DNA of 32,000 bases from Nonlabens ponticola (GTDB lineage Bacteria; Bacteroidota; Bacteroidia; Flavobacteriales; Flavobacteriaceae). The position numbers and the translations under genes were made by a program. This document shows, in pieces, positions 2,167 to 31,294 of this stretch. Where the stretch lies: contig NZ_CP034549.1 in NCBI RefSeq assembly GCF_003966335.1, positions 2,670,001 to 2,702,000 of the forward strand, written 5' to 3'. The number at the start of each line of letters is the position of its first letter. Position 1 is the first letter of the stretch. Under the pieces are notes generated by a model, which was not told the DNA's origin, ran no database searches, and was given only the letters and a program-made list of their open reading frames with translations.

Positions 2167-2180
2167 GCTTTCGCGAAAGC
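2167..2180. repeat. Palindrome copy 1: GCTTTCGCGAAAGC (+GTAAT)
   Basis: Perfect 14-mer in the convergent gap between folD (stop 2118) and the metalloprotease gene (stop 2236). Confidence 0.9.
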
Positions 2181-2235
2181 GTAATACTCAAAAATCTTAT
2201 CCACAAGTCCTAATACTGCAGGAATCTATAAATAA

Positions 2236-3036
2236 TTATCTACCGCCATTGGCTCTTAAGTCGGCAAGGCATTGTGAATCAAATTCTGGCACGCTGGACA
2301 AGCCCATAAGATCGAGAATATTACCGCCGTTTACTTCAAAAAACATGAGGCATCCATCAACGTCGCAATGTTTGGGATTATTTGCATCCTCATGATCTGA
2401 TTGTAGTGGTGTTCCTAGGTTTACCAGTCCCATTATGTGACCAAACTCATGGTTATAAACTGTCGATTCCAAAACGACTCTAGATGGCTGTCCTACACCA
2501 CCACTAAATTCCTCTATCGTTTCCTGAAACATAACCAGCGAGGTATTTCTATAAGCCGTACCCAAAACTACCGAGTTGCCCTGATTTGCCGCATTGGGTC
2601 TATTTGCAAAAATGACGGAGACTGCTATCGCATTTTCAGTATTGAATTGCGTGCGGTTGTCCTCTTCTATCTGTGCAATTTCATCTATCGTATAGCTGTC
2701 CTCGTTTTCTACCTGAATATTGCGTTCTATGATTTGTATGCCATCAGGTTTGTTCAACCGCGCTTCTAGAAAATCCTCAAGATTATCGAGCGAGGCAGAT
2801 CTTGGTTCTGCGCCGTTTAGGTAGATAGCCTCTATCACTAGTTGATCAAAGTCGGCAGTGGTAAGCAGCTCTGCAGCGCTGGCTCCAGTAGATCTGGCGT
2901 TATTGGGTATAGAACCATCACCGCCATCGTCATCACCTACTCCTACCATATCGTCAGTAGATGAGCTCTCGTCGCTAGAACATGAAGCAATACATATGAC
3001 AAACATTAAAGCTATGTAATAAAGGGAACGTTTCAT
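2236..3036 (-). CDS. Lipoprotein, putative zinc metalloprotease (HExxH)
   Basis: 266 aa. Signal peptide with lipobox (FVICIASC). Acidic Gly/Asp-rich linker. HEFGHIMGL zinc-binding motif near the C-terminus, plus paired Cys residues. Confidence 0.6.
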   Translation of the reverse strand: MKRSLYYIALMFVICIASCSSDESSSTDDMVGVGDDDGGDGSIPNNARSTGASAAELLTTADFDQLVIEAIYLNGAEPRSASLDNLEDFLEARLNKPDGIQIIERNIQVENEDSYTIDEIAQIEEDNRTQFNTENAIAVSVIFANRPNAANQGNSVVLGTAYRNTSLVMFQETIEEFSGGVGQPSRVVLESTVYNHEFGHIMGLVNLGTPLQSDHEDANNPKHCDVDGCLMFFEVNGGNILDLMGLSSVPEFDSQCLADLRANGGR

Positions 3037-3071
3037 AAGACTATTAATAGGGATTAATTACTGAGTCAAAG

Positions 3072-3079
3072 TATCTTTG
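3072..3079 (+). promoter_or_regulatory. Candidate Bacteroidota -7 promoter box TATCTTTG (TAnnTTTG) 4 nt upstream of the ATG at 3084
   Basis: Exact match to the TAnnTTTG consensus. The 4-nt gap to the start codon implies a leaderless or near-leaderless mRNA. I found no clear -33 TTTG. Confidence 0.3.
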
Positions 3080-3083
3080 GAAA

Positions 3084-3578
3084 ATGGTACCTCTAGACAA
3101 AATTAAAGATCTAGCAAATCAACGCAAAAAAGAAAACCTTGGTTTTTTCAAAACCCTGCGTAAGCAAAAACCCAAAAATCTTGATCAAATTGCTCAGCAA
3201 ACTCACGACGAGGTTTTTCAAGAGATTGATTGCCTCAAGTGCGCTAATTGTTGTAAAACGACAGGACCATTGTTTACCGATGCAGATATAAATCGTATCG
3301 CTCGTCATTTTAATGTGAAGCCCGCTACATTTATTCAAACCTACCTAAGAATTGATGAAGATGATGATTATGTATTGCAGTCAACACCATGTAGCTTTTT
3401 AGGTGATGACAACTACTGTAGTATTTATGAAGTGCGCCCTAAAGCCTGCCGTGAATATCCACATACGGATAGACGTAAATTATATCAAATAGGAACCATT
3501 ACCATTGCCAATACTGGTATATGTCCTGCGGCTTATGAAATCGTGGAGCGCATGAAAGATCGCCTACCTGTGAGATAA
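3084..3578 (+). CDS. YkgJ-family cysteine-cluster protein (UPF0153-type, putative Fe-S/Zn)
   Basis: 164 aa. CLKCANCC (CxxCxxCC) motif, followed by CSFL...NYCSIYEVRPKACREYP, typical of the YkgJ family. Confidence 0.75.
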   Translation: MVPLDKIKDLANQRKKENLGFFKTLRKQKPKNLDQIAQQTHDEVFQEIDCLKCANCCKTTGPLFTDADINRIARHFNVKPATFIQTYLRIDEDDDYVLQSTPCSFLGDDNYCSIYEVRPKACREYPHTDRRKLYQIGTITIANTGICPAAYEIVERMKDRLPVR

Positions 3579-3680
3579 CGCGGACCAAATCCTTTATTTT
3601 TTGCCAAAAATCTATCGATGCATTGCTAAGGTGTGTTAATTACGTTTTTACGGTTCGCAGTTTGCTGTACCTTAGATATA

Positions 3681-4148
3681 ATGAGAAAACTACTTCTTCT
3701 TTTGACCATCGTGGCACTAGGCGGTTGTGCAAATCAAGAGCCGTCTAGCGCAACCATCATTAAGCGTGAAGCCTTGCATGATTTGATGGCTGCAACGACC
3801 AATCAAGATGTCAAAGTATTGAACTTTTGGGCAACTTGGTGCGCACCGTGTATCGAGGAGATGCCGGCTTTTGAAGCTGTTAATGAAGACAATATAGAAG
3901 TCATATTTATATCACTTGATGACGCTTCAAAATTGGAAGATCAAGTCAATACCTTTTTAAGAGAAAACAATATTGTTTCTCGGGTTGTATTACTGGATGA
4001 TCCATACGCAAATGAATGGGTTCCTATGGTAGATTCTCATTGGGATGGCGCCATACCGGCGACACTTATAATTAAAGGAGATAAAAAACGCTTTTTCAAT
4101 CAAACCTTTAACGAGGATGAATTGAGAGAAGCTATAAATACATTATAA
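3681..4148 (+). CDS. TlpA-like thiol:disulfide oxidoreductase lipoprotein (thioredoxin fold)
   Basis: The ATG at 3681 gives MRKLLLLLTIVALGGC (lipobox), whereas the track start GTG 3633 adds a non-signal extension. WATWCAPC active site. The stop overlaps the next ATG by 1 nt (ATAATG). Confidence 0.75.
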   Translation: MRKLLLLLTIVALGGCANQEPSSATIIKREALHDLMAATTNQDVKVLNFWATWCAPCIEEMPAFEAVNEDNIEVIFISLDDASKLEDQVNTFLRENNIVSRVVLLDDPYANEWVPMVDSHWDGAIPATLIIKGDKKRFFNQTFNEDELREAINTL

Positions 4149-4852
4149 TGAAGACACTCAAGATACTTACTGCAGTTTCAATAATTGCCTTGTTGGGAGC
4201 ACTTACCTTCGGTATGCTTAATCTAGATACTGTAAATATTAATTATGCTAGTAATCCAGACTCAATCGATAAACAGGAACAAAAGCTAGAGCCCGCGATC
4301 ACTGCCGATGGATTAAAGGGTTATGATATTGGTGATATCGCGACCGACTTTAAACTCATTAATATTGATGACACCTACGTCTCACTATCAGATTTTCCTG
4401 ATGCCTTAGGATATGTGGTCATTTTTACCTGTAATCATTGCCCGTATAGTAAAGCCTATGAAGATCGCATCATAGCTTTAGACAAAAAGTACAAGAAACT
4501 AGGTTACCCAGTCATCGCAATCAACCCTAACAATCCACAAGAATATCCAGATGACAGTTTTATCAATATGAAGAAACGAGCAGCCGATAAGGGATTTACA
4601 TTTCCTTATTTAATGGACTCTAAACAAGATATTTATCCACAATACGGCGCTACTAAAACGCCTCATGTCTTTTTACTTAATAAAGAAGAAGGCAACAGTG
4701 TGGTGCGCTACATCGGTGCCATCGATGACAATCATCAGGATGAAAATAAAGTGAAAAATCATTTCCTGGCAAACGCAATTGATGCATTATTAGAAAATGA
4801 AGAAATCTCACCTACCAAGACTATCGCAATAGGTTGTTCTATCAAAAAATAA
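4148..4852 (+). CDS. Thioredoxin-fold protein (redoxin / AhpC-TSA-like) with N-terminal membrane anchor
   Basis: 234 aa. N-terminal hydrophobic segment. FTCNHCPYS (CxxC). PHVFLL and GAIDDN blocks typical of the thioredoxin-like family. Confidence 0.7.
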   Translation: MKTLKILTAVSIIALLGALTFGMLNLDTVNINYASNPDSIDKQEQKLEPAITADGLKGYDIGDIATDFKLINIDDTYVSLSDFPDALGYVVIFTCNHCPYSKAYEDRIIALDKKYKKLGYPVIAINPNNPQEYPDDSFINMKKRAADKGFTFPYLMDSKQDIYPQYGATKTPHVFLLNKEEGNSVVRYIGAIDDNHQDENKVKNHFLANAIDALLENEEISPTKTIAIGCSIKK

Positions 4853-4903
4853 CCACGCTGTAAGTAGTTGGCCTAATTTGTATTTTTGCACAAAATTACA
4901 GCC

Positions 4904-6301
4904 ATGATACTGGAACAGTATTATACTAAATGTCTTGCTCAAGGCACTTATTACATTGCTTCTAATGGTGAAGCAGCGATTATAGATCCATTACGCGAGG
5001 TACAACAGTATATAGATCGTGCTCAGGATGACAAGGTGAGGATTAAGTATATATTTCTCACTCATTTTCACGCAGACTTCGTTTCCGGCCATGTTGATCT
5101 AGCCGATAAAACGGGAGCGACAATAGTTATAGGGCCTAATGCTGTTACAAGTTACGCTTTCGCGAAAGCGGAACACCAGCAAAAGTTCTTTATAGGTGAC
5201 ATAAGCCTAACTTTACTGCATACACCTGGTCACACGCTAGAGTCATCCTGTTATTTACTCAAAGATGAAGACGGCAAGGAACAAGCGCTTTTTACAGGGG
5301 ACACCTTATTTATTGGTGACGTGGGAAGACCTGATCTTGCAGCCAAATCAGAAATGACTCAAGAAGATCTTGCAGGGATGCTTTATGATTCACTTCATAA
5401 ACACATTTTACCGCTACCAGATGATATTACCGTATATCCGGCGCATGGTGCAGGCAGTGCCTGTGGTAAAAACATGAGCTCAGAAACTAGTGACACGCTA
5501 GGGAACCAAAAGAAAACGAACTATGCACTTGACACTAATTTGTCTCGCGCAGACTTCATCAAAGAACTTACTTCTGGTATAAGCGCACCACCAGCCTATT
5601 TTCCACTTAATGTTCAAATGAATAAAGGTGTCAACAGCAGTATTGATGAGGTTATCAAAAGAGGCGTTACCCCTATAAATGCAGCTGCATTCAAAGCACT
5701 TGCCGATGATCCTGAATTTTTGGTACTAGACGTAAGATCTCCTCAAGAATTTACCGCAGGACACGTTCCAGGATCTTGGTTCATAGGATTAGACGGTCAA
5801 TTTGCACCATGGGTAGGCGCACTGATTGAAAATATTGATCAAAAAATAATTCTTGTCGTTGAGCCTGGACGTGAACGAGAAGCTGTGACCAGACTAGCTC
5901 GTGTAGGATACGACAATGCAAATGGTTTTTTATATGGAGGTTTTGAATCCTGGAAAAATGCAGGATTCGATGTTGCTACCACGGGCAATGTGAGTGCAAA
6001 ACAGTTCTTAGATGGATTGAACGATGGTAGCATTAAAAATGCAATAGACAGCCGTAAATCTGGAGAGTATGAGAATTCCCATCTTGCGGAAACAGAGCTT
6101 CTACCTTTAGCTGGCATTCATGCCCATCTACCTCATTTAGATAAAGAAAAAACGTATCATGTTCATTGTGCCGGTGGTTATAGGTCGGTAATTTTTGCCA
6201 GTATTGCTCAAGCAAATGGCATTGACAATATGATTAATGTAGAAGGTGGATATGGCGCTATTAAAAAAGTCGCCAAGCCACAACAATTGATTACCTTGTA
6301 A
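4904..6301 (+). CDS. MBL-fold hydrolase (persulfide dioxygenase-like) fused to two rhodanese-homology domains
   Basis: LTHFHADFVSGH metallo-beta-lactamase motif, with HTPGHT, GDTLFIGDVGRPDL and AHGAGSACG. A first rhodanese-like domain follows (LVLDVRSPQEFTAGHVPGS, no catalytic Cys). A second follows with the active-site loop HCAGGYRS. The ATG at 4904 is preferred over the TTG at 4886. Confidence 0.8.
   Translation: MILEQYYTKCLAQGTYYIASNGEAAIIDPLREVQQYIDRAQDDKVRIKYIFLTHFHADFVSGHVDLADKTGATIVIGPNAVTSYAFAKAEHQQKFFIGDISLTLLHTPGHTLESSCYLLKDEDGKEQALFTGDTLFIGDVGRPDLAAKSEMTQEDLAGMLYDSLHKHILPLPDDITVYPAHGAGSACGKNMSSETSDTLGNQKKTNYALDTNLSRADFIKELTSGISAPPAYFPLNVQMNKGVNSSIDEVIKRGVTPINAAAFKALADDPEFLVLDVRSPQEFTAGHVPGSWFIGLDGQFAPWVGALIENIDQKIILVVEPGREREAVTRLARVGYDNANGFLYGGFESWKNAGFDVATTGNVSAKQFLDGLNDGSIKNAIDSRKSGEYENSHLAETELLPLAGIHAHLPHLDKEKTYHVHCAGGYRSVIFASIAQANGIDNMINVEGGYGAIKKVAKPQQLITL
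5156..5169. repeat. Palindrome copy 2 (intragenic): GCTTTCGCGAAAGC
   Basis: Perfect 14-mer (16 bp with flanks, CGCTTTCGCGAAAGCG) inside the MBL-rhodanese CDS. It is read GCT TTC GCG AAA GCG = AFAKA (SYAFAKAEH). Confidence 0.9.
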
Positions 6302-6303
6302 CT

Positions 6304-6624
6304 ATGGAAAACATCAACAACCAACGCTGGAAAGAACTTACCTCACAAGATGATAATAAGGTCATCCTTGACGTGCGCACCGATGAAGAAGTGGCGGATG
6401 GTATCATTCCTAATTCCATTCAATTAGACATTTACCAACCACAAGAATTTATGGATGGTATCAATGCAATGGACAAAACAAAAACTTATTACATCTATTG
6501 CAGGTCTGGTGGTCGCAGTGCTCAAGCCTGTCAAATCATGGAACAGGCTGGATTTGAACGCACCTATAATCTAGAAGGTGGTTACAGCAATTGGGATGGT
6601 GACACTGCAATGCCTAAATCCTAA
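6304..6624 (+). CDS. Single-domain rhodanese-like sulfurtransferase
   Basis: 106 aa. ILDVRTDEE. Active-site loop YCRSGGRS. NLEGGYSNW. Starts 3 nt after the upstream stop. Confidence 0.85.
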   Translation: MENINNQRWKELTSQDDNKVILDVRTDEEVADGIIPNSIQLDIYQPQEFMDGINAMDKTKTYYIYCRSGGRSAQACQIMEQAGFERTYNLEGGYSNWDGDTAMPKS

Positions 6625-6627
6625 AGC

Positions 6628-7032
6628 ATGAGCAATATAATTCGTGCAGTTTTAGCAATAGCATTCATAATCGCGCTGGTATCGTGTTCAAAAGATGCTG
6701 CGACAGTTACCCAGATATCAGTTGAAGAAGCTGAGACTTTGATTGAATTAGATGATGTTCAATTGATTGACGTACGCAGTGCTGTGCAATATGATAAAAA
6801 GCGACTTGATGGCGCTATCAACATTGATGTCGAGGATGAGCGATTCAATCGATTATTAGAAAATATGGATAAGGATGAGCCAGTCCTACTCTACTGCAAT
6901 CAAGGAAATAAAAGTGCGCGTTGCTCGCAAATTCTTGAAGATCGCGGCTTTACTAAAATTTATGACATTGATGGCGGCCTGGCTAAATGGGAAGCATCGG
7001 GACGCAAAGTCATTGTTAAAGAAATAGAATAA
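6628..7032 (+). CDS. Rhodanese-like lipoprotein
   Basis: 134 aa. Signal peptide plus lipobox (IALVSC). LIDVRS. Active-site loop YCNQGNKS. DIDGGLAKW. Confidence 0.8.
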   Translation: MSNIIRAVLAIAFIIALVSCSKDAATVTQISVEEAETLIELDDVQLIDVRSAVQYDKKRLDGAINIDVEDERFNRLLENMDKDEPVLLYCNQGNKSARCSQILEDRGFTKIYDIDGGLAKWEASGRKVIVKEIE

Positions 7033-7038
7033 TCTATT

Positions 7039-7857
7039 ATGAAATTATCACTCATACCCAATCTCAAGCATGTTGATGCCAATAACTTCTTTCTACTATG
7101 CGGCCCATGTGCGATAGAAGGTGAAGACATGGCGATGCGCATTGCTGAAAAAGTTGTGCGCATAACTGATGACCTAAACATACCTTATATTTTTAAGGGT
7201 AGCTTCAAGAAAGCTAATCGCAGTCGTATTGATAGTTTTACTGGCATAGGTGATGAGAATGCTTTAGAGATTTTGCAAAAGGTTGGAGAGAAATTCAATA
7301 TCCCAACCGTTACTGATATTCATGAAGTTAACGATGCAGCACTAGCAGCACAGTATGTAGATGTTTTACAAATTCCTGCATTCCTAGTACGTCAGACTGA
7401 TCTGGTGGTAGCCGCAGCAGAGACTGGAAAAGTGGTCAACCTTAAAAAAGGCCAGTTCATGTCTCCTGAGAGCATGAAACATGCTGCAACGAAAGTTACC
7501 GATAGCGGCAATGAACAGGTGATGATTACTGACCGTGGTACGATGTTCGGTTATCAGGATATGATTGTGGACTTTAGAGGTATTCCTACCATGCGCCAGT
7601 ATGCGCCTACCGTGCTTGATGTGACTCACAGTTTGCAGCAACCCAATCAATCCAGCGGCGTAACTGGTGGTAGACCTGATATGATTGAAACAATCGCACG
7701 CGCAGGAATCGTCAATCACGTTGACGGACTTTTTATTGAAACGCATTTTGATCCAGCTAATGCCAAAAGTGATGGTGCCAACATGCTGGACCTACAACAC
7801 CTAGAAGGTTTGCTAACTAGACTGGTAGAGATTAGGAAGACGATAAACTCTTTTTAA
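7039..7857 (+). CDS. kdsA: 3-deoxy-8-phosphooctulonate (KDO-8-P) synthase
   Basis: 272 aa. GPCAIE, FKGSFKKANRSRIDSF.G, TDIHE, DVLQIPAFL.RQTDL, NLKKGQF, TDRGT.FGY, VLDVTHSLQQP, DGLFIETH are conserved KdsA blocks. Confidence 0.92.
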   Translation: MKLSLIPNLKHVDANNFFLLCGPCAIEGEDMAMRIAEKVVRITDDLNIPYIFKGSFKKANRSRIDSFTGIGDENALEILQKVGEKFNIPTVTDIHEVNDAALAAQYVDVLQIPAFLVRQTDLVVAAAETGKVVNLKKGQFMSPESMKHAATKVTDSGNEQVMITDRGTMFGYQDMIVDFRGIPTMRQYAPTVLDVTHSLQQPNQSSGVTGGRPDMIETIARAGIVNHVDGLFIETHFDPANAKSDGANMLDLQHLEGLLTRLVEIRKTINSF

Positions 7858-7881
7858 TCTTCAACTGGTTGTAAGTATTGA

Positions 7882-7895
7882 GCTTTCGCGAAAGC
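7882..7895. repeat. Palindrome copy 3: GCTTTCGCGAAAGC (+GTAAT)
   Basis: Perfect 14-mer 25 bp after the kdsA stop. Confidence 0.9.
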
Positions 7896-8108
7896 GTAAT
7901 TATGATAATCATTTAAAACGCCTTATTTCCAAATGATATCCTATCAAAAAGGATGAAGCTGCGGTAATGAGGAAGCTTATGTTTACTATTTATTGGCAGC
8001 GCGTATTTCAACGAAGAAATGTATCGATTAAAAACATATTTTAAAGCTGTACATCGATATTAGAGATTTTGATTGACTTATGGACGGTGGGTATAATATT
8101 TTTATCTC

Positions 8109-8786
8109 ATGATAAAGAAACTCTCAAAAATTGTGATTAGCGGTGCTATCTGCTTGTGCGCTATCTCAATGACCGCTCAAATAGGTGTCAATACTAACGA
8201 GCCTACTGCAAACCTAGATGTCAACGGTACTTTAAGAGTGCGAAGTCTTGAAAAAACTACCAACGGTTTTCAAGCAAATGGAACCGTTCTATATATAATG
8301 GGAGTTGATCAAGATGGAAATGTGATTCCTATAGAAATAGGAGAAAATATTGTTCTTGAGAATAACATACTTAAAGTGCAACTTCCTGAACAAGACAACT
8401 CACCTGAAGAATTACCTAATGGTGGTCAATTAAATGAGTTATATGAATCCGGCGATGAAGCGGTAATCAACAACCTAGATCTAGGTATAGTTTTACCTGG
8501 CGATGGACGTGCTAGTTGGCCCGTATTCAAACTAGAAAATGGAAGCAATGATGAAGAAGTCCAAATTACCGGAATAAGGCCAGCTCCCAATGGCACGATG
8601 GCTTACCTATACCCTACTTCTGGTAGTATCATGCTGAGGAAAAACGATAATGATTCTGAGCCAGAAAATCGAATTGAGGCGCAAAATAATATCAAGATTA
8701 AGAAAAACGAGATGGCACTGATTATGTATGATGCCCAGATCCAAAAATGGATCGTTGTTTCTAGTCCGCAAAATGATGATGACTAA
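8109..8786 (+). CDS. Hypothetical secreted protein
   Basis: 225 aa. Signal peptide (AICLCAISMTAQ). The N-terminal IGVNTNEPTANLDVNGTLRV resembles a motif common at the start of Bacteroidota tail-fibre-like/surface proteins (weak, from memory). It is flanked by 250 and 390 bp of non-coding DNA. Confidence 0.5.
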   Translation: MIKKLSKIVISGAICLCAISMTAQIGVNTNEPTANLDVNGTLRVRSLEKTTNGFQANGTVLYIMGVDQDGNVIPIEIGENIVLENNILKVQLPEQDNSPEELPNGGQLNELYESGDEAVINNLDLGIVLPGDGRASWPVFKLENGSNDEEVQITGIRPAPNGTMAYLYPTSGSIMLRKNDNDSEPENRIEAQNNIKIKKNEMALIMYDAQIQKWIVVSSPQNDDD

Positions 8787-8810
8787 TTAACCTTATAAGA
8801 GATTAAGCAA

Positions 8811-8852
8811 AAAATCCAAGTCTGCTCTACTCAAGGACTTGGATTTTTTTTT
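8811..8852 (+). terminator. Rho-independent terminator after the 8109-8786 gene
   Basis: Stem TCCAAGTC (8815-8822) pairs with GACTTGGA (8836-8843). An A-run precedes it and a T9 run follows (8844-8852). Confidence 0.8.
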
Positions 8853-9178
8853 GCGCTAATCTCTGCAACAATGACAGATAAGTAGTGAAACATTTATCTG
8901 GAATGAACACGACTCCTATTTGTTTGATTAAATGTGTGTATATGTTTCCAGATGACGACAGTTAAGTTCCTAAGATAAAAGTAATAGATAGACTGCATAT
9001 CACATGAGGTGCGTATGGTTATATAGATGTCTTAAATACGCCATGCAATATTATTACTCTATCGTACTTCATCTACTCAAGAAGGTGATTTATTATATCA
9101 TCAATTAGGTAAATTTAGATTACAATCGAGGGCAAAACTTTTAACAAGCATCTCCATGAAAATAAAGAATAGTAACAG

Positions 9179-11431: not shown

Positions 11432-11721
11432 CGTTTGTAGTAATGGTTTGAAACGGTTCTAAATCAATAATAACTCATTATTGGTGGATAATTCATTGCA
11501 AATTGCTTTTAACTTGAATTTAAATTAATGCTGTATACGCTAGCGCCTTTTATCAACAGTTAGAATATAAAAAATACTTACACTTCTTTATCGGACTAAC
11601 GGCAATATTTTTAGCTATCTAGACAAACGGTTCTTACTTGTTTAGAATTTAGTTAAGTATCTTTAAAATCAAGTGATTGACAAAGCAATGAATTATCATT
11701 GTACCTACAAAGTTATAATTG

Positions 11722-12411
11722 ATGAGGATTTTTACAATTGCATTATTACTCTCTTCCTTCATAGGCACGTCGCAAGACCTAACTATGATGCAAGGCGGTG
11801 CATTGTCGATAAGTGAGAATGCTTCCTTATTTATTAATGGCTTTGAGATTACACCATCGACTAACTATGAACTGTCCGATTCAAATTCTTTTACTGTTTT
11901 TAATACTTCTATAGAAGAGCCGATAAGCGTTGGCAGGGTATTTCAAATGGAAAGTCCGTTGAGCGCATATCAAGGAAATGTACGATTGTATTATCAAAAT
12001 ATTGAACTCAATAATCTGGACGAGACAAAATTAGCAATGATAGTTCAAGATGAACAGGCTACCTGGAACATGGTAGAAAGTAATCTAGATGAGACGCTTA
12101 AAATTGTTGAGTTTGATTTCCAGGAACCAACAAATTTTCAGGGAATCACCGCAATTAACAGACAAACTCTTACCATTGACGAGAGTTTGATGTCCTCTAT
12201 TAGAATTTTCCCGAACCCTACAGCCGGTATCATACAAGTTGCTACTAATCGAGCTGTCAAACTAGAAGTTATGAATTTGATAGGGCAAACAGTACTTGTT
12301 TCTCAAGACGCTAGCATCGACCTTTCTGATTTGGCTACTGCCACTTACCTTGTCAAGATTACTGATGTTTCTTCAGGAGCAAATGTGTTTAAAAAGATTG
12401 TCAAAAAGTAA
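11722..12411 (+). CDS. Secreted protein with T9SS type-A C-terminal sorting domain
   Basis: ATG at 11722 (MRIFTIALLLSSFIGTSQ signal peptide). The C-terminus IRIFPNPTAGIIQV...LEVMNLIGQTVL...ATYLVKI...FKKIVKK is a Por-secretion-tail pattern. Confidence 0.75.
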   Translation: MRIFTIALLLSSFIGTSQDLTMMQGGALSISENASLFINGFEITPSTNYELSDSNSFTVFNTSIEEPISVGRVFQMESPLSAYQGNVRLYYQNIELNNLDETKLAMIVQDEQATWNMVESNLDETLKIVEFDFQEPTNFQGITAINRQTLTIDESLMSSIRIFPNPTAGIIQVATNRAVKLEVMNLIGQTVLVSQDASIDLSDLATATYLVKITDVSSGANVFKKIVKK

Positions 12412-20773: not shown

Positions 20774-21169
20774 GGGGTCGACTGGTTTTGACAGCGAGAC
20801 TGGGTTGATTGTAAGCATGTAGAGCGCTGGGACATAGCTCTTAAATATCATGATTCAACTTTTTTAAACGGCGAGAATAACTACGCCCTAGCAGCATAAT
20901 CTGAATCATAGTAGGATGTGCCTCGGCTTGTAAGACAAGCATGCAGGAATTCTCTCAAAGGCCTTGGTTTATGGCACTTGATATAGAGAATTCGTAAAAA
21001 TAGACCTATCCTCATCAGGTCTTTGATGTTGAGGAGACACTCAATTGAAGATAAGGGATGCGTTGGTGGTTTCTGACCGGCAAGTCCACGAAAACCCAAA
21101 CAGAAACTAAACATGTAGAAAGCGATGAAGTCGCTCGTTTGGACGGCGGTTCGAATCCGCCCGACTCCA
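20774..21169 (+). ncRNA. ssrA: tmRNA (transfer-messenger RNA)
   Basis: 5' GGGGTCG pairs with 3' CGACTCC, including the G3:U wobble (alanine identity). T-arm GGCGGTTCGAATCCGCC. Tag reading frame GGC GAG AAT AAC TAC GCC CTA GCA GCA TAA (20870-20899) = GENNYALAA, the Bacteroidota-type tag. The terminal CCA is not fully encoded (ACAA). Confidence 0.95.
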
Positions 21170-21175
21170 CAACTT

Positions 21176-22254: not shown

Positions 22255-22268
22255 GTTTTCGCGAAAGC
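22255..22268. repeat. Palindrome copy 7 (one mismatch): GTTTTCGCGAAAGC (+GTAAT)
   Basis: 13/14 match, 19 bp downstream of the stop of the minus-strand T9SS gene. Confidence 0.8.
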
Positions 22269-25310: not shown

Positions 25311-25324
25311 GCTTTCGCGAAAGC
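25311..25324. repeat. Palindrome copy 8: GCTTTCGCGAAAGC (+ATAAT)
   Basis: Perfect 14-mer in the divergent intergenic region between the T9SS gene and the histidine kinase gene. Confidence 0.9.
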
Positions 25325-25639: not shown

Positions 25640-26953
25640 ATGTTCACTCAAAGAAAACTAAGCAGTGTCTACTGGATATTCTTGATCACCATTATTCTAT
25701 TGGTGCTGGCAAAGGCATTGACTGTACTCTATTATATTGACCGGCAAAAAGATGACGCACGATATGTCAACCTTTCTGGAAGACAACGCATGTTGAGCCA
25801 ACGTATTACTAAACAGCTATTGTATCTCAACCTTAAGGACGATACCGCCGTTTATCCATATAATATGGACAGCCTGCAGATAAGCTTGACCGAATGGAAA
25901 GACGCACAGCAACTATTGGTAAATGAAGCTGCACCACAATATGACAATGAAGAGCTATCTACCCTTCTAGAGAATGCCCTGGTATCCATCAACGATATAG
26001 AAGATGAGGTTCAAAATGTACTAACAAATGAATCTAAAGAAGCTATAAAGAGGGCTACGGTCACCGCATCAAACAGAGAGGTGCGTTTTCTTAAAAATAT
26101 GGATAGCGCCACAAATTTATTTCAACAGGAAGCAGAGTCTAAAACGGCTCAATCTCGCAATGTTGCCTTAATTCTAGCAGTTATAAGCCTTTTAGTTATT
26201 CTTCTAGAATTCATGTTAATAGTGCTTCCATCGTTTAAAGCGCTTTTTGCCAAAAATGCCCAACTAGAGCAAGCTAATAAGCAATTATCAGAATTTGCGC
26301 AGATAACCGCGCATAACTTGCGATCACCCATTGGGAACCTCACATTTTTAAGCAACTTTTATAAGAATGCAGAATCTGACGAAGAGAAGACAGAGTTATT
26401 TGAAAAATTTGATATTGTAATAGGTCACCTAAGTGAGACCATAGATGTGCTCATCGACAGCATCAAAATCAAGGCACATACAAATGTAGAATTCGAAACC
26501 TTATCTTTTGAAAAGACACTAGATCATACCATGCAATTACTGTATGCAGACCTAAAACGAACTAACGCAACTGTAAAAGCTGATTTTTCTAAGGCACCGA
26601 CCATTACATACCACAAAATATATCTTGATAGTATTTTCCTTAACTTGATGACCAATAGTATTAAATATAGAAGTCAAAAAAGAGAACTGATCATTGTTGT
26701 AAGAACAGTTTATCACAAGGATCAAACCGTGATGTATTTTACTGACAATGGCCAAGGTATAGATTTAGATCGCCAGGGCGACAAAATCTTTAATTTAGGA
26801 AAAACCTTTCACCGCAATGCAGACGCCAAAGGTATAGGCTTATTCATGACACGCAACCAGATTCAAGCTTTAGGTGGCAGTATTGATGTGACGAGTAAAC
26901 CCGATGAAGGAACAACATTTATAGCAACTTTTAAAAATCACAATGGAGACTAA
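25640..26953 (+). CDS. Sensor histidine kinase with periplasmic PilJ/NarX-type N-terminal sensing domain
   Basis: 437 aa. Two TM segments bracket a ~150-aa loop that opens with LSGRQRMLSQRITKQ (the type IV pili methyl-accepting transducer N-terminal / nitrate-sensor-like motif). H-box ITAHNLRSPIGNL. HATPase blocks (NLMTNSIKY, DNGQGID, GIGLF). Confidence 0.85.
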   Translation: MFTQRKLSSVYWIFLITIILLVLAKALTVLYYIDRQKDDARYVNLSGRQRMLSQRITKQLLYLNLKDDTAVYPYNMDSLQISLTEWKDAQQLLVNEAAPQYDNEELSTLLENALVSINDIEDEVQNVLTNESKEAIKRATVTASNREVRFLKNMDSATNLFQQEAESKTAQSRNVALILAVISLLVILLEFMLIVLPSFKALFAKNAQLEQANKQLSEFAQITAHNLRSPIGNLTFLSNFYKNAESDEEKTELFEKFDIVIGHLSETIDVLIDSIKIKAHTNVEFETLSFEKTLDHTMQLLYADLKRTNATVKADFSKAPTITYHKIYLDSIFLNLMTNSIKYRSQKRELIIVVRTVYHKDQTVMYFTDNGQGIDLDRQGDKIFNLGKTFHRNADAKGIGLFMTRNQIQALGGSIDVTSKPDEGTTFIATFKNHNGD

Positions 26954-27567: not shown

Positions 27568-28410
27568 ATGACTTTACAGGATTTAGGAAATTCAAATTTT
27601 GAAAACTACATCGGTGCTTCCGAAGGTCTGTCCGAAATGGCTTACCAGATGACATCGCATGTACTTACTTTAGGCTATGCAGTTATGCTAGCTGGACTGC
27701 TTTACTTCGTTTTAACCATAAAACAAGTATCTCAAAAATATAGAATGTCAAATATCTTATCGGTTGTGGTAATGGTATCAGCATTTCTTCTACTTTATGC
27801 ACAGGCAAACAACTGGACAACCAGCTTTGAGTTTGATGCAGAGCGTGGTCGCTATTTTCTTGCTGATGGTGAGGACCTTTTCAACAATGGGTATCGTTAC
27901 CTCAACTGGTTGATTGACGTACCAATGCTGTTATTCCAGATACTATTTGTAGTTTCCTTGACTAAATCTAAGTTGTCATCAGTAAGAAACCAATTCTGGT
28001 TCTCTGGTGTAATGATGATCGTTACTGGATATATTGGACAATTCTATGAAGTTTCTAACTTGACGTTATTCCTAGTTTGGGGTGCTGTCTCTACAATATT
28101 CTTCTTACATGTTCTTTACTTAATGAAGAAAGTAATTAATGAAGGTAAAGAAGGAATTCCTGCCAAGGGTCAGAAGATCTTAAACAACATTTGGATTTTG
28201 TTCTTGATTTCATGGATGCTATATCCAGGTGCATACTTGATGCCTTATCTTGGTGGTGTCGATGGATTCCTATACAACGAGAGCGGTATTGTAGGTCGTC
28301 AAATGACTTACACCATTGCAGATGTTACTTCTAAAGTAATCTACGGTGTACTTTTAGGTAACCTAGCAATGTTCTTGAGTAAAGAAGAAGGTTACAAGGT
28401 AACTGACTAA
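27568..28410 (+). CDS. Microbial rhodopsin, NDQ-motif light-driven sodium pump (NaR, KR2-like)
   Basis: 280 aa with 7 hydrophobic helices. Helix C RYLNWLIDVPMLLFQ gives N113 (27904), D117 (27916) and Q124 (27937) at the bacteriorhodopsin D85/T89/D96 positions. Schiff-base Lys K256 lies in ADVTSKVIYG (28333). Long stretches are identical to KR2 as I remember it. Confidence 0.93.
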   Translation: MTLQDLGNSNFENYIGASEGLSEMAYQMTSHVLTLGYAVMLAGLLYFVLTIKQVSQKYRMSNILSVVVMVSAFLLLYAQANNWTTSFEFDAERGRYFLADGEDLFNNGYRYLNWLIDVPMLLFQILFVVSLTKSKLSSVRNQFWFSGVMMIVTGYIGQFYEVSNLTLFLVWGAVSTIFFLHVLYLMKKVINEGKEGIPAKGQKILNNIWILFLISWMLYPGAYLMPYLGGVDGFLYNESGIVGRQMTYTIADVTSKVIYGVLLGNLAMFLSKEEGYKVTD

Positions 28411-28497: not shown

Positions 28498-28501
28498 CAT
28501 T

Positions 28502-28978: not shown

Positions 28979-29743
28979 ATGAAACAATATTTATTATTGG
29001 CTGGTTTGGTTTTCGCTTTCGCGAAAGCGCATTCACAAGGACCACCCATAACAGCAGACAAGCCCATCATGTTAGGTGGAGGCAGTTTTACAACAAAAAC
29101 ATTAACCGAAATACGTAACACAGAGCGAGGCACCGCCATTCATATACCGCTCATGTTGCATTATCTACCTACGGCAAACAGTCTAATAGCAGTACACTTG
29201 CCCTACATCAATTACGATTTGCAAGACGCATCTGGTAGCGACCTGGCTGATGTCAAAATCATGGGTAAGTACCAATTTTATCGCAAGGATGGTACCGGCA
29301 GGACATTCCGTATGGTGGCCAAAACCTTACAGACACTACCTACAGGTCCAGAACTGGATCTTATGGATTTGAGTACTGGTAAATACGCAGGATACTACGG
29401 TCTGGTATCGGGTCTTGAGACACTTAAATACGGTATTTCAACTGAGATAGGTTACAACTGGCAACCTGATGGTACGTTGGATGAATTCAGGACAAAGCTA
29501 GGTTTTGGACTACCACTACTCAAGCCACAATATCCTAATAAACAAGTAAACCTTTATTTTGAATATACCAGCGCCTGGTTGCATGAACGTGACTGGTACC
29601 AACTGTTGTATTCTCAAGGTATTCAATATGCGCGCAAGAACATCACCTTTGATCTTGCCGTGCAATTACCATTAGTACAAGAAATCGCGCCTGACCGCGC
29701 ACTCAATTATTCTGTGTTTCTAGGAACACGCTACACATTTTAA
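28979..29743 (+). CDS. Outer-membrane beta-barrel protein (MetA-pathway 'transporter'-like family, tentative)
   Basis: 254 aa. Signal peptide. Mature N-terminus GPPITADKP. Alternating amphipathic strands. C-terminal aromatic residue (RYTF). Confidence 0.55.
   Translation: MKQYLLLAGLVFAFAKAHSQGPPITADKPIMLGGGSFTTKTLTEIRNTERGTAIHIPLMLHYLPTANSLIAVHLPYINYDLQDASGSDLADVKIMGKYQFYRKDGTGRTFRMVAKTLQTLPTGPELDLMDLSTGKYAGYYGLVSGLETLKYGISTEIGYNWQPDGTLDEFRTKLGFGLPLLKPQYPNKQVNLYFEYTSAWLHERDWYQLLYSQGIQYARKNITFDLAVQLPLVQEIAPDRALNYSVFLGTRYTF
29015..29028. repeat. Palindrome copy 9 (intragenic): GCTTTCGCGAAAGC
   Basis: Perfect 14-mer (16 bp with flanks) inside the signal-peptide coding region. Read as AFAKA (VFAFAKAHSQ). 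Confidence 0.9.
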
Positions 29744-29744
29744 A

Positions 29745-30410
29745 ATGACTATTATGAAAAATATACAGATGATTACCGCATTTCTTTTTTGCTTTTTTGC
29801 TTTCACTTCGACAAGCTCAGCACAGAGCGCGAAAGCGGACGCCCAAATATCCAAAGAACGAGACCAATTTGAAGTACAAGTCGATGGGCTTGGTTGCCCA
29901 TTTTGTGCGTACGGTCTAGAAAAAAAATTCAAAGAATTTAAAGGCATCAAGGATGTCAAGATTGACATCGAGACTGGTGACTTCTCATTCTCGTATCCTG
30001 CAAGCAAGGAACTAACCATGCAAGCAGTGACTGAGCAGGTTAAGAAAGCCGGGTACACACCACAAACAGCTAAAATCGTAAGAGCAAACGGCACCATTGA
30101 GACCAATGAACCTAAAGCAACCGTAGCAGAACTAGGTACATTGACCACGTCAACAATGATGGTAAACGGTAAATGCGGTATGTGTAAGGCACGCATCGAG
30201 AAAACCGTTGCAGATTTACCTGGCGTTCTAGATGCCTCATGGGATGTGAAAACTAAGCAACTTGTGGTGAATCACGATGCTACCATGACCAATAAAGCTG
30301 CCATTTCCAAAGAGCTAGCAGCCGTAGGTCACGATACTAAATCCAATAAGGCTAGCGATGCGACTTATGATGCACTACCAGCATGCTGCCACTATAAACG
30401 AGCTATATAA
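29745..30410 (+). CDS. Periplasmic protein with two heavy-metal-associated (HMA) domains and a C-terminal CC motif
   Basis: 221 aa. Signal peptide. VDGLGCPFCAYGLEKK and VNGKCGMCKARIEK (CxxC metal sites). C-terminus PACCHYKRAI. Starts 2 nt after the upstream stop. Confidence 0.75.
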   Translation: MTIMKNIQMITAFLFCFFAFTSTSSAQSAKADAQISKERDQFEVQVDGLGCPFCAYGLEKKFKEFKGIKDVKIDIETGDFSFSYPASKELTMQAVTEQVKKAGYTPQTAKIVRANGTIETNEPKATVAELGTLTTSTMMVNGKCGMCKARIEKTVADLPGVLDASWDVKTKQLVVNHDATMTNKAAISKELAAVGHDTKSNKASDATYDALPACCHYKRAI

Positions 30411-31237
30411 TGAAGAAGTTTTTATACATCATCCCGATTGTTATCGGGATGATTTCTTGTAAAGAAGATAAACCAATTGTTATGGAATGGCAATTGGACA
30501 AAGTCATTGAATTTGATGGTATCAACCCTATAGGATTGGCGAGCTATGGTGAGAACATCGCTATTAGTGATGGAGATCATAATCGGCTCGTAATGATTGA
30601 TCAAGACGGCACCCTAATCAGTGAGGTAGCAGATTTTGATCGTCCCATGCACATCGATGTTAAAAATGACATCATTTATGTTCCAGAATATGGTCGTGAC
30701 TCTATCGCAATGGTTGCCAATCAAGAAAGATCCTACCTTAAGTTATCAGACTCGCTGGATGCACCAGCTGGCATAAGTATTTTCAATAATGAAATTGCCA
30801 TTGCAGACTTTTACAACAACAAGATTCATTACAATGATGGATCTAGCTGGTCAAGCTTTGGTAAAGAAGGAAAGGCGCTAGGCGACTTCTACTACCCTAC
30901 TGATGTTCAAATTACTGATGATTATATCTATGTAGCTGATGCTTATAACAATCGCGGTCAAGTATTTGACAAATCAGGTAAGGTGATAAAAGCCTTCGGC
31001 GAGGATCAAAATTTCAACGCTGCTACAGGCATTTACGTGAGCGACCAAGAGATTTTCCTGACGGACTTTGAGAACAATCGTGTGGTCATTTTCAGTAAAG
31101 ATTATACCGTCCAGCAAGTTATTGAATCAGGAATTGACAAACCTACTGATATGATTGTGGTAGATAATCAACTGTTTATCACTAATTATAGAAAAGGGGA
31201 GTTAGTGATTTATAAGCTGCAACAAGTATCTAGTTAA
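30410..31237 (+). CDS. NHL-repeat / six-bladed beta-propeller lipoprotein
   Basis: 275 aa. Lipobox (VIGMISC). About 6 repeats of the type FDRPMHIDV, LDAPAGISI, FYYPTDVQI, FNAATGIYV, IDKPTDMIV, followed by Y/F-V-x-D. Its ATG overlaps the upstream stop by 1 nt. Confidence 0.7.
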   Translation: MKKFLYIIPIVIGMISCKEDKPIVMEWQLDKVIEFDGINPIGLASYGENIAISDGDHNRLVMIDQDGTLISEVADFDRPMHIDVKNDIIYVPEYGRDSIAMVANQERSYLKLSDSLDAPAGISIFNNEIAIADFYNNKIHYNDGSSWSSFGKEGKALGDFYYPTDVQITDDYIYVADAYNNRGQVFDKSGKVIKAFGEDQNFNAATGIYVSDQEIFLTDFENNRVVIFSKDYTVQQVIESGIDKPTDMIVVDNQLFITNYRKGELVIYKLQQVSS

Positions 31238-31255
31238 ATTGATTTTGTTGATTAC

Positions 31256-31269
31256 GCTTTCGCGAAAGC
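31256..31269. repeat. Palindrome copy 10: ACGCTTTCGCGAAAGCGT (18-bp perfect palindrome, 31254-31271)
   Basis: Perfect copy 19 bp after the NHL gene stop and 26 bp before the next ATG. The upstream flank TTAC is the reverse of the usual GTAA extension. Confidence 0.9.
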
Positions 31270-31294
31270 GTGTTCCCTCTAAACCAATTCAAAT

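Follow-up and report, generated by a model that had tools for sequence, protein, structure and literature searches.

Copies of the palindrome at the locus

The window analysed here, a 32-kb stretch of the Nonlabens ponticola genome, carries nine perfect copies of the palindrome GCTTTCGCGAAAGC and one copy with a single mismatch, GTTTTCGCGAAAGC. Three of these copies (5156, 19812 and 29015) fall within long ORFs and the other seven are intergenic. The copies and one isolated half-site are as follows:

2167-2180, no strand: perfect copy between the convergent folD (1228-2118, +) and ORF 2236-3036 (-), in the context ATTAT-core-GTAAT; orthologue after folD in N. marinus (L242:20678)
5156-5169, no strand: perfect copy within an MBL-fold/rhodanese gene (4886-6301, +), read as Ala-Phe-Ala-Lys-Ala; orthologue in the N. 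marinus gene (L242:17366)
7882-7895, no strand: perfect copy 24 nt past the kdsA stop (7039-7857, +), at the left edge of a 4.5-kb segment missing from N. marinus; orthologue at L242:15017
12449-12462, no strand: perfect copy 37 nt past the stop of the ORF 11719-12411 and 72 nt ahead of a tricorn-type protease gene (12535-15801), at the right edge of the same 4.5-kb segment
16649-16662, no strand: perfect copy 24 nt upstream of a DUF1801 gene (16268-16624, -), where the gap is divergent; orthologue upstream of DUF1801 in strain BBFL7 (L243:16893)
19812-19825, no strand: perfect copy within an AlaDH/saccharopine-dehydrogenase-like gene (18692-19912, -), AFAKA being residues 30-34; DNA identical in N. 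marinus (L242:10088) and BBFL7 (L243:10088)
22255-22268, no strand: one-mismatch copy GTTTTCGCGAAAGC, 18 nt past the stop of a type IX secretion adhesin gene (22287-25076, -), with the GTAA tail retained on the intact half
25311-25324, no strand: perfect copy between the divergently transcribed genes for the adhesin (-) and a histidine kinase (25640-26953, +)
29015-29028, no strand: perfect copy within the ORF 28979-29743 (+), where it codes for the last part of a signal-peptide-like N-terminus (..LVFAFAKAHSQ..)
29828-29836, plus strand: isolated half-site CGCGAAAGC, not a full palindrome, which may be a chance occurrence or a decayed copy
31256-31269, no strand: perfect copy 18 nt past the stop of an NHL-repeat gene (30410-31237, +), widening to the 18-bp palindrome ACGCTTTCGCGAAAGCGT (31254-31271)

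A preliminary description of this DNA had reported nine perfect copies and one with a mismatch as too many for chance. We recovered them at the same positions, against an expectation of 0.08 for the window (100 dinucleotide-preserving shuffles, up to two mismatches allowed; mean 0.08 matches, maximum 1). The half-site at 29828 and the 18-mer were also confirmed, as was the absence of a T-run after every copy in the window. Our literature searches found no earlier description of the palindrome or its function, in agreement with the earlier statement that its function was undescribed.

Distribution and conservation

A scan for the 14-mer in the genomes of 185,579 species gave matches dominated by Nonlabens and Dokdonia. 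Loci of Nonlabens and Dokdonia sampled blind to the motif all carried it, at about one copy per 3.4 kb, with 9 and 7 copies per 21 kb in N. marinus, five exact copies and one split copy in N. agnitus, two copies in BBFL7, and three to six copies plus end-variants in Dokdonia. Extrapolating from approximately 116 kb of Nonlabens sequence, a genome of this genus would hold roughly 850 copies. No copies per 21 kb were found in the outgroup genera Gangjinia and Mesonia. The palindrome is a feature of the marine flavobacteria Nonlabens and Dokdonia. Neither of the cultured Nonlabens phages P12024S and P12024L carried a copy (35.7 and 35.0 kb, respectively), and none was present in 9.4 kb of a helicase/McrBC island. 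Prophage-like contigs harbored three copies per 11-12 kb, which is expected from slow build-up in resident DNA and also from any host-imposed requirement.

Orthologous copies were found at the same positions across different Nonlabens species, where a 20-mer forms an island of identity within spacers that are otherwise scrambled between species. Where the window is syntenic with N. marinus, each copy was matched by a counterpart in that species. The AlaDH-like protein illustrates this within a gene: AFAKA was invariant in 46 of the best 120 homologue clusters, among them each of the nine named Nonlabens sequences in the comparison, the adjoining residues were variable, and other genera had xFPxA at that site. 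The AFAKA codons were identical in the three species compared (the N. ponticola window, N. marinus and BBFL7). As judged from these sequences, the motif replaced the ancestral xFPxA in this gene and then became invariant, with DNA-level invariance checked in the three species. Our comparisons showed that copies arise in situ through point substitutions, in genes and spacers alike, not by spread through transposition, and that copies at fixed sites are maintained by selection on the DNA sequence itself.

Placement and spacing

Approximately 60% of the copies in the pooled loci were intragenic and 39% intergenic, the latter at 3.8 times the coding density. Within genes, 61 copies were read in the AFAKA frame and 24 in each of the other two frames. 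In the preliminary description, the copies had been linked to stop codons. Five of the seven intergenic copies in the window do lie 18-55 nt past a stop (previously given as 19-56), but the link disappeared in the larger sample, where convergent gaps had the lowest density (0.37 copies per kb, versus 0.75 in divergent and 0.6-0.9 in tandem gaps) and copies in tandem gaps had a mean relative position of 0.44. The copies are evenly spaced and repel each other rather than cluster: the coefficient of variation of the gaps in the window was 0.24 (P = 6e-5), and only 6 gaps shorter than 1 kb were present in the pool versus 28.8 expected.

Structure of the repeated unit

The pooled loci (784 kb) contained 178 perfect, 17 one-mismatch and 23 two-mismatch copies. 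On each strand, the 3' half is GCGAAAGC, followed by G; isolated GCGAAAGC was uncommon (40 of 396 strand occurrences in the pooled loci). A one-sided extension giving the unit a polarity had been proposed, but this was not borne out by about 150 Nonlabens and Dokdonia copies, in which G at +1 (79-89%) and A at +3 (about 70%) occurred on both sides, making a symmetric palindrome of 16-20 bp without consistent polarity. After the core, G dropped to 0-10% for about 19 nt in the 3' direction on both strands, and this G-poor tail was alike whether copies were grouped as intergenic, coding-sense or coding-antisense. Where a copy had half decayed (24 cases), the tail signature persisted solely beside the intact half. 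Read 5' to 3' on either strand, the full unit is about 19 nt without C, then C, GCTTTCGCGAAAGC, G and about 19 nt without G; GCTTTCGCGAAAGC is the invariant core of this clade-specific iterated palindrome. Because each half-site has its own guanine-free 3' tail, the arrangement points to single-stranded reading on both strands, and since full palindromes far exceed half-sites, both orientations are kept at each locus. The oligonucleotide d(GCGAAAGC) forms a known, ultra-stable mini-hairpin with a melting temperature of 76.5 °C; it withstands 3' exonuclease, and exclusion of SSB has been proposed for it (PMC13037366). The mini-hairpin argument comes from oligonucleotide chemistry, not from Nonlabens. 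The predicted DNA stems of the copies were weak (-3 to -6 kcal/mol), and those of the RNA ranged from -5 to -9.5 kcal/mol.

Possible functions

By analogy with USS/DUS and HIP1, we infer, with somewhat less than even confidence, that the palindrome serves as a self-DNA signal for DNA uptake or recombination. Among the four candidate roles put forward in the preliminary description, the uptake-sequence-like one is the best fit, given the presence of copies in coding and non-coding DNA, their frame bias, clade restriction, positional conservation and even spacing, and the lack of copies in outgroup genera and virulent phages. The element would mark resident ('self') DNA for a DNA transaction usable on either strand and at any locus, most likely natural transformation or recombinational repair, by acting in uptake, in the processing of single strands that are incoming or resected, or in both. 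In the single-stranded state, the 3' half GCGAAAGC would fold into an exonuclease-resistant, SSB-excluding mini-hairpin behind which the guanine-free tail would remain unstructured, and the central CGCG may be methylated. Natural competence in Flavobacteriaceae is known in Riemerella (PMC7965970).

Even spacing and strict conservation of each site would equally suit a site of chromosome architecture. It is possible, although unlikely, that the palindrome binds a dimeric nucleoid-associated or chromosome-organising protein and provides even anchors for folding or supercoil management, such as strong topoisomerase sites. The perfectly palindromic core, the regular spacing and the per-site conservation through the history of the genus agree with such a protein, the half-site and tail, which act as a separate unit, could be the footprint of one monomer, and a like role was proposed for HIP1 in the part of the source available to us (PMC5861425). 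However, exclusion of G from one strand over about 19 positions is hard to account for by double-stranded reading and is typical of unstructured single strands, roughly 850 near-identical sites of 14-20 bp would be unusually many and unusually strict, and there is no known candidate protein. The operator of a dimeric regulator, another of the earlier candidates, was rejected as a misfit with so many copies in each genome, the majority of which lie in coding sequence.

We consider it quite unlikely that a putative CGCG or TCGCGA methylation system targets the motif or leaves it as a by-product, with methylation-directed repair making and maintaining it as in Elhai's HIP model. The Nonlabens phages strongly avoid CGCG (9 versus 44 expected) and lack TCGCGA (0 versus 3.5 expected), host loci avoid CGCG mildly (observed/expected 0.73), C-to-T or G-to-A transitions account for 10 of the 17 one-mismatch variants, and HIP sites co-occur with cognate methyltransferases, according to the portion of that report available (PMC4390886). 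Yet a repair bias over 4-6 bp leaves unexplained the conservation of 14-20 bp and a 19-nt tail, the even spacing and the fixed orthologous positions; TCGCGA outside the motif occurred in the window about as often as expected (4 versus 4.3), and the methyltransferase is still hypothetical. The restriction/methylation target suggested earlier is not supported as the explanation, but the avoidance of CGCG by phages makes methylation of the motif centre plausible.

Highly doubtful is a single-strand initiation signal, in which hairpin and 3' tail would recruit a primase or primosome for lagging-strand or restart priming every 3 kb or so, as proposed for GCGAAAGC, with SSB exclusion, at the primase site of the phage G4 complementary-strand origin (PMC13037366). 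The layout, with an unstructured 3' tail behind a hairpin, matches; the spacing is comparable to the length of Okazaki fragments, and the motif-free phages carry their own primase and helicase. Full palindromes nevertheless outnumber half-sites by 178 to 24; as the lagging-strand template is fixed at each locus, one half-site would suffice for priming. We know of no bacterium that requires specific chromosomal priming signals.

An RNA-level role, as a REP-like stabiliser of mRNA 3' ends, a terminator or an insulating hairpin, is very improbable. The position of five window copies shortly past stop codons and the few canonical terminators detectable in the window would favor it, but most copies lie in coding sequence, the tail signature is just as strong on the antisense strand, convergent gaps have the lowest copy density, copies repel each other, and the sequence downstream is A-rich, not T-rich. 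The predicted DNA and RNA stems are weak, no Rfam match was found at the copies, and at the rhodopsin gene the motif lies past an apparent canonical terminator, an arrangement conserved between two species. The REP-like or insulating hairpin of the preliminary description is accordingly disfavored. Finally, there is scarcely any likelihood that the motif is mobile or marks a recombination site, whether as what remains of a MITE or as a cassette or attachment site for segment insertion: copies 7882 and 12449 do edge the 4.5-kb segment without N. marinus equivalent and share 25 of 40 positions in their left flanks (background 13.8 +/- 3.1), and two copies have 14-21 nt inserted at their exact centre, but flanks elsewhere are alike in composition, not sequence, intragenic copies came from substitution, not insertion, and no copies edge a second indel of that region.

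Comparison with known systems

REP/BIME elements of gamma-proteobacteria are likewise abundant palindromic repeats with some copies right behind genes. They are extragenic, imperfect, clustered and spread by RAYT, whereas our motif lies mainly within genes, is perfect, and has copies that keep their distance from one another and hold fixed positions; it is not a REP element. The d(GCGAAAGC) at the phage G4 complementary-strand origin corresponds exactly to the 3' half on each strand, which is then followed by G (PMC13037366), but there it concerns the structure of an 8-mer present at a few phage origins, whereas the motif is iterated genome-wide and its hairpin is predicted. Chi sites (RecBCD/AddAB hotspots) are also clade-specific, over-represented, found in genes and spacers and present once per few kb. 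They are read on a single strand, and the half-site and tail unit of the motif likewise suggests a strand-specific reader; however, Chi is an asymmetric sequence of 5-8 nt skewed with replication direction, and the motif is palindromic and spans 14-20 bp.

HIP1 (GCGATCGC), the Highly Iterated Palindrome of cyanobacteria, shows conservation and quasi-periodicity and increases natural transformation in a way that depends on methylation, according to the parts of the reports available to us (PMC5861425; bioRxiv 10.1101/2024.09.10.611283, 10.64898/2026.06.24.733823). In these same parts, HIP1 resembles our motif as a perfect palindrome hugely over-represented clade-wide, occupying genes and spacers at sites kept between species by selection, not replenished, with a non-random, quasi-regular distribution and a short CG-rich palindrome inside as a plausible methylation target; a Chi-like effect has been proposed for it as well. 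Both have proposed functions, that of HIP1 having recently been tied to natural transformation. The motif differs in sequence, length (14-20 versus 8 bp), phylum (Bacteroidota versus Cyanobacteria) and density (about one per 3.4 kb, versus HIP1 densities that can exceed one per gene). Its guanine-free, strand-asymmetric tails and GCGAAAGC halves find no mention in the HIP1 literature available to us, which describes cognate methyltransferases co-occurring with HIP; a methyltransferase for the motif is hypothetical.

USS, like the motif, are reported to be evenly spaced, with a conserved core and compositionally biased flanks. Like the motif, the USS of Pasteurellaceae and DUS of Neisseriaceae occur about once per 1-3 kb both within and outside coding sequence, are enriched between genes and biased in reading frame, are common to related genera and absent from outgroups, and originate by point substitution. 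Foreign DNA is reported to lack uptake sequences, and the motif is absent from virulent phage genomes. Against an uptake role, USS/DUS are asymmetric, non-palindromic 9-12-mers with many one-mismatch relatives, whereas the palindromic core here is 14-20 bp long and near-invariant. Competence, motif-dependent uptake and a receptor have been demonstrated for USS/DUS, and an uptake role for the motif is proposed by analogy. By that analogy, the palindrome is, in its behaviour, the flavobacterial counterpart of the USS/DUS uptake sequences and of cyanobacterial HIP1.

Motif copies in the window and in pooled loci

Our scan of the window recovered the nine perfect copies of the 14-bp palindrome GCTTTCGCGAAAGC reported in the preliminary description (positions 2167, 5156, 7882, 12449, 16649, 19812, 25311, 29015 and 31256), as well as the copy with a single mismatch at 22255 and an isolated half-site at 29828. 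The 10-mer TTTCGCGAAA was confined in the window to these ten copies. Their abundance had been described as beyond chance, and dinucleotide-preserving shuffles of the window bore this out, with a mean of 0.08 copies at two or fewer mismatches against the 10 present. In 784 kb of pooled loci, where base composition predicts 0.001 copies, we counted 178 perfect copies against 17 single-mismatch and 23 double-mismatch ones; nine of the 23 are the same end-variant ATTTTCGCGAAAGC (several in Dokdonia). An ordinary restriction target, one of the roles previously considered, would be expected to be avoided or unenriched; the 14-mer is some five orders of magnitude more frequent than expected, and this role was abandoned. 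Among 14 TCGCGA sites in the window, 10 lay within the motif and four elsewhere (4.3 expected from composition), so the shorter restriction-type site alone is neither enriched nor avoided.

The window carries ffh, folD, kdsA and genes for a tricorn-type protease, a type IX secretion adhesin, two-component systems and tmRNA. Two of its features were identified as follows:

20774-21172, + strand: tmRNA gene (Rfam RF00023, 131.5 bits, full length)
27568-28410, + strand: rhodopsin, 100% identical to the Nonlabens ponticola protein and 79-84% identical to database-named sodium-pumping rhodopsins (N. marinus, Dokdonia eikasta)

A second N. agnitus rhodopsin (locus L240, 5572-6390; 38% identical) lies about 4 kb from the other copy and adjoins BLUF-domain genes.

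Clade range and density

The exact 14-mer was scanned in 185,579 species, each represented by one genome. At least 120 blocks of up to 8 kb contained the motif. Among the matches listed, most came from Nonlabens, Dokdonia and other Flavobacteriaceae assemblies, often with two to three copies per block, and those in unrelated GC-rich bacteria were single, as chance predicts. Density was estimated without bias from loci chosen for a rhodopsin or dehydrogenase gene, irrespective of the motif.

Motif copies in loci chosen irrespective of the motif
L239, N. marinus: 8 perfect and 1 variant in 20.8 kb
L242, N. marinus: 6 perfect and 1 variant in 21.2 kb
L240, N. agnitus: 5 perfect and 1 split copy in 20.8 kb
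L243, strain BBFL7: 2 perfect in 21.2 kb
L241 and L244, two Dokdonia: 3 and 5 perfect, plus several with only the outer two bases altered

Together with the window, the Nonlabens loci held 34 copies in 116 kb, or approximately one per 3.4 kb, which extrapolates from samples of 20-32 kb to about 850 copies per genome. The comparison with related Flavobacteriaceae suggested in the preliminary description thus placed the motif in Nonlabens and Dokdonia, with no copy in 21 kb of Gangjinia marincola, the nearest outgroup reached, or in 21 kb of Mesonia maritima. Outgroup "dialects" were also considered and rejected, as neither of these two loci contained another iterated palindrome. The k-mer counts of the Gangjinia locus are dominated by a tandem repeat, some 19 units based on ACTCTGA(AC).

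Spacing and position relative to genes

Long ORFs contain about 60% of the pooled copies, and the 39% between genes are 3.8 times as dense as those in coding sequence (genes in the 8-kb loci being crude ORF calls). Two candidate roles put forward earlier do not agree with this distribution. REP or BIME elements are expected to be strictly extragenic, imperfect and clustered, and the motif has a perfect core, sits mostly in ORFs and shows mutual repulsion. A transcription-factor operator would be expected at tens of promoter sites, not every 3.4 kb and mostly in coding sequence.

Neighboring window copies are separated by 2241-4567 bp (nine gaps; coefficient of variation, 0.24), and placing copies at random matched this regularity 6 times in 100,000. 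In the pooled loci, the same number of copies was placed randomly in 3,000 simulations that kept the 3.8-fold intergenic preference.

Short gaps between neighboring copies in the pooled loci
Gaps below 500 bp: 1 observed, 16 expected
Gaps below 1 kb: 6 observed, 28.8 expected
Gaps below 1.5 kb: 11 observed, 40 expected

None of the 3,000 simulations came near the observed counts, and since short gaps are so far below random expectation, the copies repel each other.

The association with gene ends noted in the window was not kept in the larger sample: convergent gaps were the poorest in copies (0.37 per kb), divergent gaps held 0.75 per kb, and copies in tandem gaps lay near the middle. Intrinsic terminators were likewise rejected, given the A-rich tail, the weak stems, the paucity of copies in convergent gaps and a terminator scan of the window that reported none at the motif copies. 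Terminator-like sites were no commoner in the window than in shuffled sequence, and only one was convincing:

17573-17595, + strand: intrinsic terminator, 9-bp stem and then TTTTTAT, downstream of the first fasciclin gene

In both N. marinus and N. agnitus, a motif copy stands beyond the apparent canonical terminator of the rhodopsin gene (hairpin then T-run), which is conserved between the two.

Anatomy of the element

The anatomy was read outward from the 14-bp core on both sides of about 150 pooled copies. G occupies position +1 in 79-89% of flanks and A position +3 in about 70%, with A or C at +4, so that the palindrome extends to 16-20 bp, typically as TTC-core-GAA in Nonlabens and TAC-core-GTA in Dokdonia. 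With the extension present on both sides, the "one-sided" extension described from the window proved to be an accident of the small sample. A longer stem was rejected because mirror complementarity beyond +2 equals compositional expectation.

Over about 19 nt 3' of the core, guanine falls to 0-10% on each strand, against a background of 19%. The depletion is equal downstream of coding copies on the sense strand, upstream of them on the antisense strand, and at intergenic copies, which indicates a constraint acting on the nucleic acid and not on a protein or a single transcript. In 24 half-decayed copies, the tail signature is kept beside the intact half and relaxed beside the decayed one; hence, the working unit is a half-site with its own 3' tail, on both strands. 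These copies also led us to reject RecA loading through a T/G-rich 5' flank, since in them the signature goes with the intact half's 3' tail, not with its 5' side. A guanine-free tract is a classic means of keeping a single strand unstructured, and we infer from these tails that the element is read in single-stranded form.

The 3' half of each motif strand is exactly the octamer GCGAAAGC. This octamer forms an exceptionally stable DNA mini-hairpin melting at 76.5 C, resists 3' exonucleases, has been proposed to exclude SSB, and is found at the phage G4 primase site (PMC13037366). As ordinary hairpins, natural copies fold weakly (-3 to -6 kcal/mol as DNA, -5 to -9.5 as RNA), the standard energy models used for these values omitting the GCGAAAGC mini-hairpin.

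Two "split" copies have intact arms with 14-21 nt inserted at the exact center:

L240:10912-10946 (N. agnitus): insert itself palindromic, GCCTGTC-G-GACAGGC
L044:474-501 (another pooled locus)

In Dokdonia sp. R86516 (L241), half-variants GCTTTCGCGAAAAT near 14138 and 18347 lie within longer shared sequence (GTGAnCAACCACAA, GATTTTTTTTGTGGT), which suggests a distinct family of intergenic repeats with the half-site inside it.

Origin and conservation of individual sites

Coding copies use the three reading frames 61, 24 and 24 times, the favored frame encoding Ala-Phe-Ala-Lys-Ala (AFAKA). A function of this peptide was rejected in view of the intergenic copies, the use of all three frames and the antisense tail signature, which place the constraint at the DNA level. 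A clear case is the copy in an AlaDH-like gene (window 18692-19912, - strand). AFAKA was found in 46 of the best 120 homologue clusters of its product, in 44 at the same residue, and in all nine named Nonlabens sequences examined, with variable residues on either side; the same position reads xFPxA in other genera and QFEDA in Dokdonia. Although 256 encodings of AFAKA are possible, the 15-mer DNA is identical in N. ponticola, N. marinus and BBFL7. Together, the invariant peptide, its variable neighbors, the ancestral xFPxA and the identical DNA show that this site arose in the Nonlabens ancestor through a few substitutions and was maintained at the DNA level from then on.

Other sites are also conserved between species. 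Window positions 1228-19912 are syntenic with N. marinus locus L242, where four copies match those of the window: one behind folD, one in the MBL-fold/rhodanese gene, one behind kdsA and one in the AlaDH-like gene. A copy upstream of the DUF1801 gene is common to the window and BBFL7. All four sites in the stretch syntenic between N. marinus and N. agnitus are shared, two of them being variant in one species. In spacers, the 20-mer stands as an island of identity amid sequence that can no longer be aligned between species. The 8-kb motif-scan loci contained no orthologues of the window proteins. Flanks of different copies are unrelated in sequence and have only base composition in common, save for one pair (7882/12449); with the substitution origin of the AlaDH-like coding copy, this led us to reject a MITE or insertion-sequence remnant, for which common flanks, terminal inverted repeats and target-site duplications would be expected.

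Several coding copies, in the window and in pooled loci, end signal-peptide-like N-termini (..FAFAKA-Q/Y/H..), for example:

Window 29015-29028
L043:1303
L057:5241
L103:3355
L113:3059

Ala-x-Ala is the usual signal-peptidase cleavage context, and such ends may therefore accept the motif easily.

Foreign and resident DNA

The complete genomes of the Nonlabens phages P12024S (JQ823122; 35.7 kb) and P12024L (JQ823123; 35.0 kb) contained no copy even at two or three mismatches, where about 10 would be expected at host density. Similarly, a BBFL7 island (L243:1-9400) with a large helicase gene and McrB/McrC-like genes, adjoining the AlaDH-like gene, had none in 9.4 kb, with about three expected at the Nonlabens average. 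Prophage-like contigs (portal, protease and head genes) carried three copies per 11-12 kb with typical flanks, some within structural genes. These were the few multi-copy, low-GC contigs counted from a viral-contig scan that otherwise gave mostly single, uninformative matches across all GC contents. The difference between phages and prophages fits a slow accumulation of the motif in lineage-resident DNA.

Short palindromes in phage P12024S
GGCC: 0 observed, 35 expected
CCGG: 2 observed, 34 expected
CGCG: 9 observed, 44 expected

Both phages have about 10 CGCG and no TCGCGA (3.5 expected), and Nonlabens host loci mildly avoid GGCC, CCGG and CGCG (ratios of 0.67-0.73). This avoidance suggests that restriction systems of the HaeIII, HpaII and FnuDII types are common in the host clade. 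On the same grounds, the central CGCG of the motif is probably a restriction-modification target in the clade and may be methylated in the host.

Possible functions

The clade-wide abundance of the motif, its origin by substitution, purifying selection on the DNA at fixed sites, frame bias, intergenic enrichment, even spacing, and absence from virulent phages and outgroups form a signature similar to those of USS/DUS and HIP1. By analogy, our leading but still tentative explanation is that the motif serves as a self-DNA signal in uptake or recombination. As full palindromes greatly outnumber half-sites, both orientations seem to be needed at every locus, which favors processes that work on either strand or in either direction, such as transformation or break repair from either side. 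The mini-hairpin, and the unit of half-site and unstructured tail, suggest that the element acts on single strands, for example by stopping 3' exonucleases or loading a processing protein. A more specific proposal, which we hold as rather doubtful, is that this is the first uptake- or recombination-type "self" signal in Bacteroidota and that it differs from USS/DUS in the way it works. Under this proposal, the palindrome would be read single-stranded, be it on an incoming or on a resected strand; either strand would fold its 3' half into the exonuclease-resistant GCGAAAGC mini-hairpin, with the guanine-free tail behind it, and so protect or mark homologous DNA at intervals of about 3 kb. The signal might be strengthened by methylation of the central CGCG.

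Among the alternatives, a binding site involved in chromosome architecture is unlikely, and maintenance of the motif by methylation is quite unlikely. A priming signal is very unlikely, because replication direction is fixed at a given locus and yet full palindromes outnumber half-sites; the need for both orientations argues against replication-direction functions as a whole, including lagging-strand priming and skewed signals such as KOPS. We find a role at the RNA level highly improbable: the tail is wrong, the stems are weak, convergent gaps are the poorest, the signature is also antisense, and a scan of the window against Rfam 15 at gathering scores matched only tmRNA.

An insertion site is suggested by one segment of the window:

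7882-12462: 4.5-kb three-gene segment between kdsA and the tricorn protease gene (ORFs 8109-8786, 9179-11431 and 11719-12411)

This segment is absent from N. marinus (compared with L242:14955-15060) and is bounded by copies 7882 and 12449, the left flanks of which are identical at 25 of 40 positions. A neighboring indel has no copies at its boundaries; with one of two indels fitting, copies as general indel boundaries were rejected, the reading was not generalized, and we consider an insertion site hardly credible.

If the motif is indeed a single-stranded self signal, abundant marine flavobacteria would turn out to be naturally transformable, and the motif and HIP1 together would form a general class of palindromic signals for transformation. 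The motif would also mark resident versus recently acquired DNA in these genomes and, if it raises transformation as HIP1 does in cyanobacteria, provide a practical genetics tool for these organisms. Since Nonlabens and Dokdonia can be cultured and serve as model marine flavobacteria in rhodopsin work, transformation, methylation and pull-down tests are feasible; the half-site tails and mini-hairpins offer an unusually informative anatomy with concrete, cheap predictions.

Comparison with known signals

To our knowledge, genome-wide "signal words" are few in bacteria (USS/DUS, Chi, KOPS and HIP1), and each has opened a view on a DNA transaction. The motif adds to them a long, near-invariant palindrome from a different phylum. 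Full-text literature searches found no account of the 14-mer, of its 10-mer core, or of such a palindrome or repeat in Nonlabens or Dokdonia, in agreement with the earlier statement that no function had been described.

The earlier suggestion of an uptake-sequence-like signal held in part. Like USS/DUS, which occur about once per 1-3 kb, the motif exceeds its expected frequency by orders of magnitude, at about one copy per 3.4 kb, has coding and non-coding copies with intergenic enrichment and a reading-frame bias, and is common to related genera while absent from outgroup loci and foreign DNA. The likeness did not extend to the core, which in USS/DUS is asymmetric, 9-12 nt long and surrounded by abundant one-mismatch relatives, whereas the motif is palindromic over 14-20 bp with 178 perfect copies versus 17. 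Within Flavobacteriaceae, natural competence has been reported only for Riemerella, and the same study sought uptake sequences in three other members of the family and found only A-rich words (PMC7965970); our literature search returned nothing specific on competence in Nonlabens or Dokdonia.

With HIP1, the motif shares a perfect palindrome, clade-wide hyper-abundance, presence in genes and spacers, and individual sites conserved between genomes, which indicates selection and not replenishment. Published work has shown HIP1 to be conserved by selection and quasi-periodic (PMC5861425), and recent preprints (bioRxiv 10.1101/2024.09.10.611283; 10.64898/2026.06.24.733823) report that methylated HIP1 raises natural transformation up to 100-fold, propose uptake-related and Chi-like effects, and note a correlation with DNA-uptake genes. 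The cognate orphan methyltransferase of HIP-type elements reads an internal sub-site; for the motif, CGCG and TCGCGA are candidate sub-sites, which the phages avoid (9 versus 44 and 0 versus 3.5). HIP-type periodicity spans 10-90 kb, whereas the regular spacing of the motif is short-range and derived from stretches of 20-32 kb. Relative to known iterated palindromic and uptake-type signals, the length of the motif, its guanine-free tails and its mini-hairpin halves are new.
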